Origin: Promethearchaeota archaeon
Lineage (GTDB): Archaea; Asgardarchaeota; Lokiarchaeia; Sigyniarchaeales; SOKP01
Reading direction: 5' to 3'
DNA: 40,694 bases
Assembly: GCA_030610785.1 (NCBI GenBank)
Contig: JAUWRB010000001.1
Coordinates: 1 to 40,694, forward strand
Shown: piece by piece, positions 17,798 through 22,942 of the stretch
Layout of the letters: every line of letters starts with the position of its first letter
Numbering within the stretch: the first letter of the stretch is position 1
Program-made: the position numbers and the translations under genes
Notes under the pieces: model-generated
Databases searched by the model: none
The model's input: the letters and a program-made list of their open reading frames with translations, nothing else
Told to the model about the DNA's origin: nothing

Positions 17798-20700
17798 GTG
17801 CCAAAAGTGACAACCAACGATGAGGGAAAGATTAAGCAAGGCACAATAGCTCAATTCATGCGTAAAAGAACACAATTAGTGGGCTTTGAATTTGGACATT
17901 GGAAACACACGCAATATTGTGCAGAGTTTTTAGACAATGCCCTTGATGCGATAGAATCTTTCCAATGGATGGAATTAAATAAAAAAGATTCTAAAATAAT
18001 GTTCTCCTTGGATCAAGATCTATTTTTAGGCAGTTTAACAATTCTAAAAAATGAAAAACAACTTGAAAAATCTCTACCATTAAGTAATGAAGGAAAACGT
18101 ACATTAATGCTTGAATTAGGTATAGAACAATTCGAATTAAAAGAATCTGAAACCCATTTAATTGAAGAAAAGGAAGAAAAATCTCAAAAAGTAGTTGATA
18201 AAAAACATGAGGAAGTTGAAGAGGAAGTAAAAAAAATAATCAATGATCTGGAAGAACTTATCAAGCCTGTAGAATATATCATTGATCTTGAACCAATTGC
18301 TATTATTAGATTAAGTGAATCTGAAGCAGCATCGTTTTTAACATCAGAATTAAGTCAAAAAAATATCATGAATTATGCTTTTGAAATTTTTGATAACGGC
18401 ACGGGGATGTTGAAAGTAGATTTTAAAAAGTTTGGAAAGTATCTTGCTTCCAGTAAAAGCATTGAATTAAAACAAACAAGAGGTAGTCAAGGATTTGGCG
18501 CGCCGAGTGCTTTCAGTGATGCACAAAACACAACTGGAAGGCCTATTATAGCAATTTCAAAATCAGCAGAAAATATTTACGCTACAGTTTCAGAATTTTT
18601 TACAACATCAAAAAATGAAAAAAAATATATCGTTTACCCTACCGATGTCGATTGCCCATTTCTCCATGGAACTTATATTAAATTAAATTATTTAAATGTA
18701 AAATATATCCGGGGGTATGTGGACAAATTTATAGAAGAAACAGCCTATATGAATCCGCACATTACGCTTATCTATATAGATCCTAACGGTGAGGAAACTA
18801 TTTACAAAAGATTAGTTTCTTCGTTTCCAAAAGAACCCAAATTTGCTAAACCACATCCTTCATCAATAAATATAGGCGATCTACAAGATTTATTAGCAAA
18901 ATCCGAAATTAACTCTCTTTCTTCGTTTTTAAAAGAAAATTTTGTAAGAATTAGTTCAAAAATTGCTCAAAAAATTATTGACCTTGCGTCAAAAGATTTA
19001 CAAGATAATTTAAATTTCTTAATTCTTAAAAACGGCTTTATAAATAAAATATCAAAAAAAAGCGATCTTATTTATTTACTTTGCTATGAAAAAAGAATTT
19101 TTGGAAAGTCCAAAAAACCCAGAGACAAATTAATAATTTATAAAGTTGACTCAGAAGATTTGAAAAATAAATATTGGGAATTAATCTTAAATTATAATCA
19201 ATTTAAAGAAAATCACAAAAAAATTAACAATGATATAAAAAAATTTAATTACCGTGTGGAAAAATCTAAAACTTTAAAGGAAATTAAATTTATTGAAAAA
19301 GAAATAAAAAATCTATTAATAAAAATCGATGAAATTAGAAAAGAAAAAGAAATAATAAAAATTAAATTAGAAAAAGTTTTTGAAAATGTTAATGAAGGTT
19401 TAATTGAATTAAAAAAAATTAAAAAAAGAACTGATTTTGAAGATTTAGTTAACGAGGTTGAAATTTCTAAAGCTAAACCAATAGATTTAACGAAAAATCA
19501 ATATAACTCGCTTTTCCTAGCATTTAAATCGATAAAATATATGACTCCTCCTACAGATACAGCTATTCCCGTAGGTGATACTGTATTAGAAAATACGTTA
19601 ATAAAAGAAATAGGATTAAAAATCTCAGAAAATATTGAAGATTTCGCAGCACCCGTGGATGATATTTATAAAATAATTGATATTATACGCGATGAAAAGA
19701 AAAATGCTATAATACGCGAAGATCCAACTGTTAATGATTTAATTTTAAACAAAATCTCAGTAAGTTCTGAAGAAATCATCGATTTAAATTCTAAAATTTT
19801 AACTAATATCGATCTCATGGATAAAAATGTTAATATAAACGAATTTAAACAATCTGTAGAAAAAATTCTTACATTTTCAGAAGAAGAACTTAAAGATAAT
19901 TATAATGATGTGTTTGAATTTTTTTTAATAAATTATACTAAAGACGATGATTTTGTATCAGCTGAAACGAGACCTCCAACGAGCGGTAAAGGTTTAGCCT
20001 ATGTTGTAGAAGCCGTCTTAGCATATTCAAAAAATCTCGGAACCCCTAAACGCGCTCGGGATGTATTAAGCAGATTTGTTAATAGAACCCCAAAATTAAG
20101 AGATACTGCTGACTGCGCAATTACAAAGGCAGTTCAGTCGGTTAATTGGAAGAATTATAAGTTAGAAACTTATGATAATAATTTACCAAAAGGCCCTATA
20201 AAACTTCTGGTAAATGTTTCTGGACCGTTTGTCCATTTAATGTTTAAATCACAATCTAAAAGTGCTTTAGCTGATGATGAAAATTTAATAAAAGAAATAA
20301 AATTTTGTCTTGAAGCAATTGGAAGAAAGTTGAGAATCTTTCTTAATAGAAAAGCAAATATGTATAAAAGCGAAAAGAGAGCAAGTTTAATTGAAAAACA
20401 CATTCCACAATTTATCAAAAGCGTGTATAACATAGCTTCAAGAGGTGAAAGCATATATAAAGCACGTGTTAACGAAAAAGAATTAATAGATTTAATGAAA
20501 AAAGCTATAGGACAAAAGCCTCCTTCGTTTATTAAAAGAGAAATATCACAGGAACCACCTGAAATTGCATCTCCTAAACCAATAGAAATAAAGGAGGAAT
20601 ATGTTAAGAAAGAAGATCTCCAAAAAAAAGAATTTGCCGTTAAAAAAGAGAAAATAATACCAAAGAAAGAACCAGTTGTTAAGAAACCTGAACCCGATAA

Positions 20701-21220
20701 AGAATTCATTTCAGTTAAAACGCTCAATAATTATACCGTAAAAGAGCTAAAAGAATATTGTAACGAGAAAAAAATAAAAATACATTCAAAAATAACTAAA
20801 GTAAATGTTATAAAGAAAATTTCAGAATCATTCGAGAAAAAGTCAAAATTAGAAATCGTGAAAGAACCGATAAGACCTTTGCCAGTCACATCAAGGGCCA
20901 TTTCAGTAAAGAAACAACAATTAAAAATAGCAAAAATAAAAGCTCCGGCATCAACTAAGCCAAAACCCTCTCCGAAACCTCGTGTTACTCCTCCAAAACC
21001 AAAAACAACTCAAACTCAATTACCTATAATTACAACAGAAAGAATTTTAGAAGTATTATCAAAAGAAGAATGGCAAGCAATTACTCACCTCATTTTTAAA
21101 TTAAAAATTAAAGATATGATGGATGCTAGGTTTTTACAAATTAAATTAAAAGAATTATTAAGGAAAGGATTAGTTTTAGAAAATACAATTAAAACTAAAA
21201 AACACTGGAAATTAAAATAA
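17798..21220 (+). CDS. top6B: DNA topoisomerase VI subunit B, unusually long (1140 aa) with insertions and a C-terminal extension
   Basis: GTG start. N-terminal strap IAQFMRKRTQLVGF. Bergerat-fold N box EFLDNALDA (E43/N47/D50). G1 box FDNGTGM (D199). G2-like TRGSQGFGAPSA. YMNPHITLIYIDPNGE. H2TH segment KPHPSSINIGDLQDLL. PPTDTAIPVGD. Transducer motifs ETRPPTSGKGLAYVVEAVLAY, SRFVNRTPKLRD, NWKNYKL and KSQSKSA. Confidence 0.85.
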   Translation: MPKVTTNDEGKIKQGTIAQFMRKRTQLVGFEFGHWKHTQYCAEFLDNALDAIESFQWMELNKKDSKIMFSLDQDLFLGSLTILKNEKQLEKSLPLSNEGKRTLMLELGIEQFELKESETHLIEEKEEKSQKVVDKKHEEVEEEVKKIINDLEELIKPVEYIIDLEPIAIIRLSESEAASFLTSELSQKNIMNYAFEIFDNGTGMLKVDFKKFGKYLASSKSIELKQTRGSQGFGAPSAFSDAQNTTGRPIIAISKSAENIYATVSEFFTTSKNEKKYIVYPTDVDCPFLHGTYIKLNYLNVKYIRGYVDKFIEETAYMNPHITLIYIDPNGEETIYKRLVSSFPKEPKFAKPHPSSINIGDLQDLLAKSEINSLSSFLKENFVRISSKIAQKIIDLASKDLQDNLNFLILKNGFINKISKKSDLIYLLCYEKRIFGKSKKPRDKLIIYKVDSEDLKNKYWELILNYNQFKENHKKINNDIKKFNYRVEKSKTLKEIKFIEKEIKNLLIKIDEIRKEKEIIKIKLEKVFENVNEGLIELKKIKKRTDFEDLVNEVEISKAKPIDLTKNQYNSLFLAFKSIKYMTPPTDTAIPVGDTVLENTLIKEIGLKISENIEDFAAPVDDIYKIIDIIRDEKKNAIIREDPTVNDLILNKISVSSEEIIDLNSKILTNIDLMDKNVNINEFKQSVEKILTFSEEELKDNYNDVFEFFLINYTKDDDFVSAETRPPTSGKGLAYVVEAVLAYSKNLGTPKRARDVLSRFVNRTPKLRDTADCAITKAVQSVNWKNYKLETYDNNLPKGPIKLLVNVSGPFVHLMFKSQSKSALADDENLIKEIKFCLEAIGRKLRIFLNRKANMYKSEKRASLIEKHIPQFIKSVYNIASRGESIYKARVNEKELIDLMKKAIGQKPPSFIKREISQEPPEIASPKPIEIKEEYVKKEDLQKKEFAVKKEKIIPKKEPVVKKPEPDKEFISVKTLNNYTVKELKEYCNEKKIKIHSKITKVNVIKKISESFEKKSKLEIVKEPIRPLPVTSRAISVKKQQLKIAKIKAPASTKPKPSPKPRVTPPKPKTTQTQLPIITTERILEVLSKEEWQAITHLIFKLKIKDMMDARFLQIKLKELLRKGLVLENTIKTKKHWKLK

Positions 21221-21236: not shown

Positions 21237-22427
21237 ATGAGTCAAAAAAAACCTCCCAGTTTAAATTATGATTTAAAAGCGACAAAAAAACTATTTAATG
21301 AATATTTAGAAAAAGGACGCGATAAAACTGAAATTAAACTCCCCCCAGATACCGTCAAGATTGATGATCTTGATAGAAATAAAACCTTAGCAAGACTTTA
21401 TAAACTTGTTGATGATGTTATCGAAAAAATTTATAATACAGGAAGACCATCAATAAAATTACCCTCTAGAGCGACTTCTAATATTAAATGGGATGAGGAA
21501 AATGATTTATTACTTCTTGGTAATCAACTCCAAGAGAAACAGTTTCATACTCTTACTAGCGTTACAGATGTTACGAGATTGATGCGAGTGTTAGAAATAG
21601 TTGATGAATTGCTAGTTAAAGATATTCATGCTACTAAACGTGAAATTTTTTATAGTGATGTAAATTTATTCGTAGAACAAAAAAATAGCGATAAAAGCAT
21701 TGAAGATGTAGCAACAATGTTATATGCCACGCGTAACTCAACTCATATAGTTGCTGCTCCAAAAGGAACTTGTGTAGGGCGCCTTAGAATTAGAGATAAA
21801 AACGATATAATTGACCTTGAAGGATTAGGAAGTGGTGGTTGGACAATTTCTCCCATGTTAGACAATATCGAAATAATAGAATCCGATGCAGAATTTATTT
21901 TAGTAATAGAAAAGGATGCTGCCCTAATGCGCTTAGCAGAAGCAAGATTTTGGCGTAAATATCCGTGTATCTTAATTACCGCACAAGGCGTTGGAAATGT
22001 TGCCGTGCGCATGTTTTTAAAACGATTAAGCAGGGAATTAAACTTGCCTATTTTCAGCCTGGTCGACAGCGACCCGTACGGGCACTATATTCACTCCGTT
22101 TATCTACGTGGGTCGAAGAGATTGAGTTACGAGTCACCTTTCCTCGCCACACCAAATATTAAACTACTTGGAGTCTTAACAAAAGATTTAGACGCATATA
22201 AAATTCCGAATGAAGTTAGGATCCCAATGAATAAACAAGACAAGAAACGTGTAAAAGACATGTTAAATGAAGATTTCGTAAAAAAAAACAAAAAATGGGA
22301 AGAAGATCTAAAATTAGCTCTTAAATTAGAAATTAAAGCCGAAATTCAAGCATTTTCAGCACATGGTTTTGAATTCCTTACAGAAAAATACCTACCTGAA
22401 AAATTAACAACGGGGGACTGGATTTGA
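21237..22427 (+). CDS. top6A: DNA topoisomerase VI subunit A (Spo11 homolog)
   Basis: 396 aa. Winged-helix/5Y-CAP region with KREIFYSD (catalytic Tyr context). Toprim motifs LVIEKDA (Glu) and VDSDPYGHYI (DxD). 16 nt downstream of top6B. Confidence 0.9.
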   Translation: MSQKKPPSLNYDLKATKKLFNEYLEKGRDKTEIKLPPDTVKIDDLDRNKTLARLYKLVDDVIEKIYNTGRPSIKLPSRATSNIKWDEENDLLLLGNQLQEKQFHTLTSVTDVTRLMRVLEIVDELLVKDIHATKREIFYSDVNLFVEQKNSDKSIEDVATMLYATRNSTHIVAAPKGTCVGRLRIRDKNDIIDLEGLGSGGWTISPMLDNIEIIESDAEFILVIEKDAALMRLAEARFWRKYPCILITAQGVGNVAVRMFLKRLSRELNLPIFSLVDSDPYGHYIHSVYLRGSKRLSYESPFLATPNIKLLGVLTKDLDAYKIPNEVRIPMNKQDKKRVKDMLNEDFVKKNKKWEEDLKLALKLEIKAEIQAFSAHGFEFLTEKYLPEKLTTGDWI

Positions 22428-22942
22428 GAATATTTCGTAAAAAAAATGGGGGTATTGTTCAATTAATTGATAAAGAAAAAATGCAAGAATGGCCGGTTGA
22501 ATTACCGCTGATATTTATTGAATATATCAGAAATAAAAAATTAGAATCCTATGAAGATATAAAAGTCAAAAAAGGAGTAGAAAATTATCTTGATGAAATT
22601 ATGGAAGATATAGCCATTCCGAGATTAATTAATGTCTTAGAAGGATCTGATGTTGAAGAAATAATTTTAGCTCTAACTCGTCTTGAACAACTCTCAAGAA
22701 AAAAGATTGAAATGATAAGACCGATCAAATCCTATCTAAATAATTTGTTAAAACTTAAAACTACGAAAATAGTTACATTAGCTCAAACTATTTCGGATAA
22801 TTTTGCTAAAGCCGATAGGAAAAAGGAATTGGCTAAAAAAAGAAAAATTATGCAAGAAAAAGAAAAACAATTTTTAGCGGGAAAAATTGGTGGAGAAGAA
22901 TACGCAAAGGCAAGAAAGGAATACCTCACATTAAAAGAATGA
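22424..22942 (+). CDS. Hypothetical protein (172 aa, possible single HEAT-like repeat plus basic coiled-coil tail), coupled to top6A
   Basis: The ORF's TTG start (22424-22426) overlaps the top6A TGA (22425-22427). An alternative in-frame ATG is at about 22481 (MQEW). The IPRLINVLEGSDVEEIILALTRLEQL segment resembles a HEAT repeat. I recognise no family. Confidence 0.5.
   Translation: MRIFRKKNGGIVQLIDKEKMQEWPVELPLIFIEYIRNKKLESYEDIKVKKGVENYLDEIMEDIAIPRLINVLEGSDVEEIILALTRLEQLSRKKIEMIRPIKSYLNNLLKLKTTKIVTLAQTISDNFAKADRKKELAKKRKIMQEKEKQFLAGKIGGEEYAKARKEYLTLKE

Follow-up and report, generated by a model that had tools for sequence, protein, structure and literature searches.

A topoisomerase VI B subunit enlarged by three conserved inserts in one order of Lokiarchaeia

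Both the topoisomerase of plant endoreduplication and the Spo11 machinery descend from archaeal topoisomerase VI (Topo VI). The way in which the B subunit of this enzyme senses DNA geometry is being actively studied, among others in a 2026 cryo-electron microscopy (cryo-EM) analysis of the M. mazei enzyme with DNA. The 40,694-nucleotide stretch analysed here, hereafter the window, is contig JAUWRB010000001.1 (positions 1 to 40,694, forward strand) of assembly GCA_030610785.1 from a Promethearchaeota archaeon of the Lokiarchaeia, and it carries a gene for a B subunit, Top6B, that an earlier note made from the DNA letters alone had singled out as about twice the normal size. The locus thus raises the question of whether so large a protein is a working Top6B or an artefact, and what its additional segments might do. 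We find that the gene is genuine, is the only gene for a Topo VI ATPase subunit in its genome, and is not an artefact:

17798 to 21220, forward strand: top6B, GTG start, 1140 amino acids (aa), the sole Top6B of the genome.

The identity of the protein was examined with profile and sequence searches. The open reading frame (ORF) at 17798 to 21220 scored 299.3 bits against NF003218, the Top6B equivalog model, whose curated cut-off for whole proteins is 274. At aa 716-860 it also matched PF09239, the transducer family, with 98.5 bits (cut-off 24). The score against TIGR01052, 280 bits, lies under the cut-off of 380.7 of that model because the inserts split the match. When the protein was searched with phmmer against PDB sequences, the top match was M. 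mazei Top6B (chain 2q2e_B, E = 2.4e-54), with query residues 11-54, 197-400, 561-604 and 718-880 paired with chain residues 12-55, 78-284, 289-332 and 336-494, respectively. Since this chain aligns in four separated collinear pieces, three spacings are expanded, by approximately 115-120, 155 and 110 aa, and they fall at aa 56-190, about 404-556 and about 606-715, the nucleotide ranges in which the earlier note had placed them. The claim of about twice the usual size is likewise borne out. The norm of 530-620 aa against which that size had been judged holds for the solved structures, but longer classes have been catalogued, with NCBIfam models of 659 and 795 positions. The end coordinate of 20539 given at the time does not hold as the gene end; the frame continues to 21220 and adds a basic tail of about 235 aa.

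As had been proposed, the canonical motifs are all present and in order, and homolog alignments confirm them. The N box (E43, N47 and D50) is invariant in all three homolog alignments, canonical Top6Bs included; D199 of the G1 box (D199-x-G201-x-G203) is conserved in at least 90% of homologs; and the G2/ATP lid G229-G234 (aa 225-234) is invariant or at least 90% conserved. PPTD (aa 584-587) and ETRPP (aa 722-727) stand in the expected order and are near-invariant or invariant, while WKxY (W784-K785-N786-Y787) and the switch lysine K821 are both invariant in the alignment with other Asgard Top6Bs. The H2TH domain is also present, with aa 321-403 and 557-605 aligned to M. mazei 205-284 and 289-332. 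Judged by its sequence, the protein thus has every testable defining feature of Topo VI subunit B. The alignments and structural models divide it as follows, all on the forward strand:

17798 to 17962, forward strand: N-terminal strap and N-box helix, aa 1-55, aligned to M. mazei 12-55.
17963 to 18367, forward strand: insert 1, aa 56-190, within the GHKL fold between the N box and the G1 box, from alignments.
18020 to 18202, forward strand: Loki-specific acidic low-complexity core of insert 1, about aa 75-135, from alignment and model.
18368 to 18757, forward strand: remaining GHKL ATPase fold with the G1 box and G2/ATP lid, from alignments and Foldseek.
18758 to 19006, forward strand: first part of H2TH, aa 321-403, with K379 and R384, from the alignment to 2q2e_B.
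19007 to 19465, forward strand: insert 2, aa 404-556, modelled as a beta module and an antiparallel coiled-coil hairpin, from alignments and AlphaFold2 (AF2).
19466 to 19612, forward strand: last H2TH helix and PPTD/PxG linker, aa 557-605, with K580, from the alignment to 2q2e_B.
19613 to 19942, forward strand: insert 3, aa 606-715, acidic and helical, at the transducer start, from alignments and AF2.
19943 to 20512, forward strand: transducer, aa 716-905, from PF09239, alignments and AF2.
20513 to 21220, forward strand: basic C-terminal tail of about 235 aa, with a SAP/HeH-like part, a P/K-rich linker and a winged-helix-like end.

Structure was modelled in two AF2 runs, the first with the full-length protein and Loki-only sequences (predicted local distance difference test, pLDDT, 53) and the second with aa 1-905, the tail being dropped and canonical Asgard Top6Bs added (pLDDT 71; predicted TM-score, pTM, 0.58). 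When the aa 1-905 model was compared with the PDB by Foldseek, a structural check that the earlier note had called for, the top 16 matches were the M. mazei and S. shibatae Top6Bs, with target-normalised TM-scores of 0.48-0.67; the whole 905-aa model retrieved only Top6B and other GHKL ATPases from the PDB, with no separate match to an insert. The transducer was modelled as a beta sheet with a long stalk helix (828-881) and a further helix (893-904). The C-terminal tail has a net charge of about +30, its last part (aa 1080-1140) reached a pLDDT of 77-87 in the full-length run, and Pfam Rho_N or SAP matches were obtained in the tails of some homologs.

We then considered whether the extra length could be an artefact or a mobile insertion, i.e., a mis-assembly, one or more inteins, or a pseudogene backed by a normal top6B. 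Inteins are common in archaeal replication proteins, and Villain et al. 2022 (PMC9348778) removed them from some Top6 sequences; in addition, the genome at hand is approximately 79% complete. Nevertheless, the same collinear architecture recurred in independent assemblies. More than 500 homologs were retrieved from a collection of 5.8 billion proteins. The best 120, labelled Promethearchaeota or Lokiarchaeia, are 1073-1214 aa long, 59-65% identical to the query (one is 93% identical) and cover 97-100% of it, with a single exception at 88%. In a scan of one genome per species, 79 loci gave collinear full-length matches; they come from many unrelated sampling projects and two lie on closed chromosomes, and Candidatus (Ca.) Harpocratesius repetitus has a 1154-aa version on a 4.36-Mb contig. 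The frame is open and all catalytic residues are intact. A transducer profile search found one PF09239 match and hence no second Top6B copy in this genome, itself about 79% complete, and nearly every complete genome of the window's family likewise has a single match, so that the normal-size second gene that the earlier note had named as a possible refutation was not seen. Paralogs of insert 2 were not found elsewhere in the genome either. Altogether, an artefactual or mobile origin of the extra length is so improbable that we give it almost no weight.

The intein reading was also taken up as a candidate in its own right, as the earlier note had advised, and rejected: neither the complete protein nor any of the inserts gave a Pfam match to a Hint or intein domain, and the insert borders, when read in sequence, lack a Cys, Ser or Thr combined with a terminal His-Asn. 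A Pfam scan of each insert with E values up to 5 yielded chance or coiled-coil noise only.

Several database records of such proteins carry unexpected labels. One typical Loki Top6B, full length and 61% identical, is filed as 'Candidatus Nanopelagicaceae bacterium' (locus L065, DATKTW010000133.1), and other contigs with 60-64% identical proteins are labelled Hod-, Hermod-, Thor- or Odinarchaeota; these records are probably mis-binned or mislabelled.

The earlier note had asked whether the inserts are conserved within the lineage, and alignment with related archaea answers this in the affirmative: all three are essentially gap-free in 56 aligned homologs, where identity to the window's protein is 57%, 57% and 44% for inserts 1, 2 and 3 and 81-84% for the core blocks. 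Compared to an ortholog that is 95% identical in DNA, the ratio of nonsynonymous to synonymous substitution rates (dN/dS) is 0.24, 0.27 and 0.33 for inserts 1, 2 and 3 and 0.17 for the core, figures that rest on few substitutions (21-29 per insert) and whose weight is lessened by this. With the inserts left out, a core of 535 aa remains, which shares 43-49% identity, across 85-99% of its length, with Top6Bs of 600-700 aa labelled Odin-, Baldr-, Frey- and Thorarchaeia; on these alignments, the catalytic core (strap, GHKL, H2TH and transducer) is orthologous to the 600-700-aa Asgard Top6B.

How far the extra segments extend was traced with insert 2 in 301 Asgard genomes. It was found in 66 of 68 genomes of the window's family and in all 7 of a second family of the order, i.e., in 73 of 75 genomes of the window's order, whereas the two remaining families of the class and some 225 additional Asgard genomes gave nothing credible; the only match outside the order is weak, and stop codons break its reading frame. 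Overall identity to the window's Top6B falls to 40-45% in distant members of the order, whose insert 2 is 152-163 aa long and approximately 33% identical. We conclude that accessory modules were added to the core in the ancestor of this order of Lokiarchaeia and have since been kept under purifying selection. We regard this part of the explanation, comprising identity, conservation and selection, as very nearly certain.

Insert 2 occupies a site at which Loki proteins have 160 residues in the joint alignment, other Asgard Top6Bs 3-14 and M. mazei 3-5. Two independent AF2 runs agree on its fold, with a pLDDT of 72-89: a basic beta module (aa 404-452) with strands 407-410, 413-416, 426-434 and 441-450 is followed by two long antiparallel helices, 453-489 and 493-528, and then by a short segment that leads back. 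Three residues, R433, G436 and R442, do not vary even among distant relatives, and the net charge is about +11 in the family. In the 2026 cryo-EM structure of M. mazei Topo VI on minicircle DNA, the H2TH domain comprises residues 235-311, and its residues R263, K268 and K308 contact the arms of bent DNA on the outer Top6B face (PMC13040014). Their counterparts here are K379, R384 and K580, of which R384 is invariant and K580 is conserved in at least 90% of homologs. Because aa 404-556 lie between the second and third of these equivalents, insert 2 maps inside the H2TH domain, between the equivalents of the DNA contacts K268 and K308; the earlier note thus had the site right but placed the insert between H2TH and PPTD, i.e., after the domain rather than within it. 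The flanking DNA-contact equivalents also suggest that the insert belongs to the DNA-arm surface. We tentatively predict that it binds DNA, a prediction to which we give a little less than an even chance.

Some observations weigh against this reading. Insert 2 is near neutral in two of six distant Lokiarchaeales proteins (net -2 and +1), and a purely electrostatic role in DNA binding is therefore weakened; its placement relative to DNA comes from mapping onto a published structure; and a coiled-coil hairpin is equally typical of protein-protein docking. The arm may serve to dock proteins instead of DNA, through partner recruitment or higher-order Topo VI assembly, with the acidic inserts in the same network. 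Antiparallel coiled-coil hairpins are common as docking arms, and a profile of insert 2 searched against PDB sequences returned generic coiled coils only (myosin, haemagglutinin HA2 and the arm of seryl-tRNA synthetase). In addition, plant Topo VI requires the separate partners RHL1 and BIN4, as stated in Brinkmeier et al. 2022 (PMC9665070). Candidate docking partners are an SMC-type complex, chromatin proteins and the product of a small conserved ORF that follows top6A both here and in a relative, described below. Yet insert 2 lies between conserved H2TH residues for DNA contact and is basic in most members of the group, and any partner is at present a candidate. We consider docking rather unlikely, though it remains the strongest of the rivals to DNA binding by insert 2.

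Insert 1 turned out to be composite. Its site holds 135 residues in Loki proteins, 79-106 in Odin-, Thor-, Baldr- and Freyarchaeia and about 23 in M. mazei, so that the expansion reported in the earlier note is there but is no Loki novelty as a whole. Parts common to other Asgard Top6Bs are aa 56-75, a helix at 135-158 (pLDDT 81-86), an EP motif and a lengthened hairpin to aa 190, and W57, P157, E165 and P166 are conserved across Asgard Top6Bs. By alignment, the greater part of insert 1 thus belongs to the GHKL fold of Asgard Top6Bs in general, and Loki proteins add to it only about 30-55 acidic, disordered residues. This core, at about aa 75-135, is absent from other Asgard Top6Bs and was modelled as disordered, with a pLDDT below 50; the charged stretch EEKEEKSQKVVDKKHEEVEEEVKK corresponds to aa 123-146. 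Mean net charge is about -10 for aa 81-138 and about -18 for the whole of insert 1 in the family, and the region is 140-301 aa long in distant Lokiarchaeales. A profile of insert 1 had no match among PDB sequences.

At the site of insert 3, Loki proteins have 110-113 residues, other Asgard Top6Bs 1-3 and M. mazei 3-5. The segment was modelled as five helices with a pLDDT of 40-80, its net charge averages about -18 in the family, and its profile had no match among PDB sequences. In distant Lokiarchaeales, it is 74-105 aa long and barely recognisable in sequence. All distant Lokiarchaeales proteins that were checked have a negative insert 1 and a positive tail; for inserts 2 and 3 the sign is retained in most of them, a weaker pattern than that of insert 1 and the tail.

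These features bear on a further alternative, in which the inserts are tolerated expansions of surface loops, fixed by drift and kept since their deletion disturbs folding, adding no activity. Insert 3 and the insert-1 core are low-complexity, poorly conserved, variable in length in distant relatives and partly disordered in the model, and could be tolerated expansion segments of this kind, which counts against a function for both; moreover, Top6B length is highly plastic across Asgard archaea, and no insert matches a known family. Drift accounts poorly, however, for the near-constant length, confident fold and invariant residues that insert 2 keeps across the order down to about 33% identity, for dN/dS values of 0.24-0.33 in all three inserts, and for charge signs that persist despite sequence change. 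We thus consider drift unlikely, and slightly less credible than docking.

Returning to DNA binding by an enlarged B subunit, the gene directly downstream encodes the catalytic partner subunit of the enzyme:

21237 to 22427, forward strand: top6A, 396 aa, 16 nucleotides downstream of top6B, with TP6A_N and Toprim domains (E = 4.8e-59).

The top6B-top6A order was also found in the relative locus L037. A 172-aa ORF at 22424-22942 on the forward strand overlaps the top6A stop and has the same length and position in this closest relative (L037:7618-8136).

In the explanation that we propose, the top6B product would be the working ATPase subunit of the organism's sole Topo VI, made together with Top6A from the adjacent gene. 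Insert 2, with a basic four-strand beta element and a coiled-coil hairpin arm of about 35 residues, would extend the outer DNA-binding surface and might help the enzyme to hold or sense DNA that is bent or crossing, or that lies at a greater distance from the gate. Both the acidic insert-1 core and insert 3 would be flexible segments that mimic DNA or bind partners, and they could modulate access to H2TH, insert 2 and the SAP/winged-helix tail or dock basic chromatin proteins; such a regulatory role is possible, but we hold it to be doubtful. Taken as a package, a predicted active Topo VI with an enlarged surface for binding DNA arms and with acidic segments for regulation or partners, the explanation seems to us about evenly poised between right and wrong.

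GyrA is encoded in 21 of 21 relatives, this genome included, and in Villain et al. 2022 (PMC9348778), lineage-specific additions to Top6B are tied to the presence of gyrase. Since gyrase is also encoded, Topo VI in these archaea is probably specialised, for example as a decatenase. In a bolder version of the proposal, Loki Topo VI would have built into its B subunit accessory functions that are supplied elsewhere by separate proteins (RHL1/BIN4 in plants, DNA-tethering domains), with the arm and tail binding DNA beyond the gate and the acidic inserts acting as an intramolecular DNA mimic or a histone-binding switch. We rate this version as improbable; if true, the acidic switch would render Topo VI activity responsive to chromatin state.

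The gyrA genes of these relatives offered an observation of their own. In five of them (G165:C17:394719-397385, G183:C59:80924-83674, G168:C476:6105-8855, G301:C165 and G303:C95), the GyrA match is split, either into profile positions 1-93 and 92-431 about 470 aa apart or into 1-41 and 29/36-431 about 430 aa apart, and both parts lie within one open frame of 1240-1310 aa in each case. This pattern suggests inteins in gyrA. The gyrA of the window's genome (G000:C31:9330-10652) is uninterrupted.

Top6Bs of other Asgard lineages are enlarged in different ways. Giant versions were found at L032:1315-13866 (reverse strand, 4184 aa), L034:2797-9729 (reverse strand, 2311 aa) and L035:2131-5475 (reverse strand, 1115 aa), the latter two labelled Heimdallarchaeota, and entire Asgard families repeatedly show open Top6B frames in the range of 4150-4300 aa, near 3500 aa or near 2300 aa. 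They have a core of normal size, with the transducer at aa 337-518, and then a tail of approximately 34-aa modules that are helix-hairpin-helix (HhH)-like, with Pfam matches to RAD51D_N, HHH_5 and RNA_pol_A_CTD. A self-BLAST of the giant Heimdall-type tails found no repeats; a hidden Markov model built from hand-picked tail copies gave 10-13 significant modules, which extend as far as the C-terminus, and about 20 possible ones. This tail resembles the HhH arrays of topoisomerase V, and no description of it was found in the literature searched. A third layout is that of a Helarchaeota-labelled Top6B of 1348 aa (L033:1594-5637, forward strand), from the same class as the window but a different order. 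It has an N-terminal extension of about 290 aa, winged-helix-like and then basic, about 320 inserted residues that follow the last GHKL strand and are flanked by CxxC...CxxC motifs, and extra sequence around H2TH; no homolog of Loki insert 2 was found in it. The routes by which Top6B gained DNA-binding material thus seem to differ from one Asgard lineage to another. Were the bolder version of our proposal true, these HhH-array Top6Bs would further imply that Asgard archaea repeatedly and independently made Topo VI chromatin-anchored.

Topo VI is a well-known enzyme, of which the Loki protein represents a lineage-specific variant so far undescribed. For Asgard TopoVIB, Brinkmeier et al. 2022 (PMC9665070) reported an additional helix in the transducer as well as a C-terminal domain, and Villain et al. 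2022 (PMC9348778) reported lineage-specific C-terminal domains in Top6B; the accessible parts of both papers make no mention of internal inserts, and no description of the inserts was found in the searchable literature, including the accessible parts of PMC11302465, PMC12680538 and PMC5484517. A conserved, folded arm of about 150 aa in the DNA-sensing H2TH domain, together with charged flexible segments in the ATPase and transducer regions, provides a natural test case for how far the B subunit can be remodelled on its outer surface and how this affects substrate choice, in an order that includes Lokiarchaeum ossiferum.

The earlier note had also suggested a link to the divergent Top6B-like partners of Spo11 in eukaryotes, which our data do not support. 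Inserts 2 and 3 occur in a single order of Lokiarchaeia only; all other Asgard families sampled lack them, genomes labelled Heimdallarchaeota included, and the order-specific inserts have no direct bearing on the origin of the eukaryotic enzyme, with the Asgard-wide part of insert 1 as a possible exception. TOPOVIBL/MTOPVIB and Loki Top6B are both divergent Top6B relatives with variable extra regions. According to Brinkmeier et al. 2022 (PMC9665070), however, TOPOVIBL has a linker in place of H2TH and its ATP motifs are often degenerate; Loki Top6B retains H2TH, all GHKL motifs and the switch lysine, which is also degenerate in TOPOVIBL, and membership in the TOPOVIBL/MTOPVIB group was accordingly rejected. 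Because the Loki inserts are confined to one archaeal order, we see no specific relationship to TOPOVIBL.

A parallel in kind is the 170-aa insertion of E. coli GyrB, a precedent for a lineage-specific folded domain in the B subunit of a type II topoisomerase. It has a novel fold and is critical for enzyme function, according to Schoeffler, May and Berger 2010 (PMC2995079); it differs in that it belongs to a type IIA enzyme, lies in the TOPRIM domain and has an unrelated fold.

The closest relatives of the Loki core, at the 43-49% identity given above, are the normal-size Asgard Top6Bs, for example those of Ca. Odinarchaeum yellowstonii (614 aa) and of the Thor, Baldr and Frey lineages (600-700 aa). 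They share the GHKL insertion of 79-106 aa with W57, the helix 135-158 and the EP motif, and the extra transducer helix, known from Asgard and eukaryotic TopoVIB (Brinkmeier et al. 2022, PMC9665070), is likewise common to both. Inserts 2 and 3 are missing from these proteins, as are the acidic insert-1 core and the long basic tail.

In the PDB, M. mazei Top6B (2q2e_B; DNA complexes 9o0g and 9o8p) is both the best sequence match and the best fold match to Loki Top6B. It is shorter, at 621 aa, with about 23 aa at the insert-1 site and 3-5 aa where Loki has inserts 2 and 3, and its C-terminal domain is Ig-like, whereas Loki has the SAP/winged-helix tail. A smaller difference lies in the counterpart of its KGRR loop (VKGRRQS), at aa 298-307 (18689-18718), which is three residues shorter in the Loki protein (VKYIRG-Y), a shortening that is common to other Asgard Top6Bs; this loop reportedly senses the transported DNA segment (Wendorff and Berger 2018). 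Like the Loki organism, M. mazei also encodes gyrase. The two proteins have the same domain order of strap, GHKL, H2TH and transducer and share the ATP-binding motifs, WKxY and the switch lysine, and the H2TH positions that contact DNA in M. mazei are kept basic in Loki Top6B.

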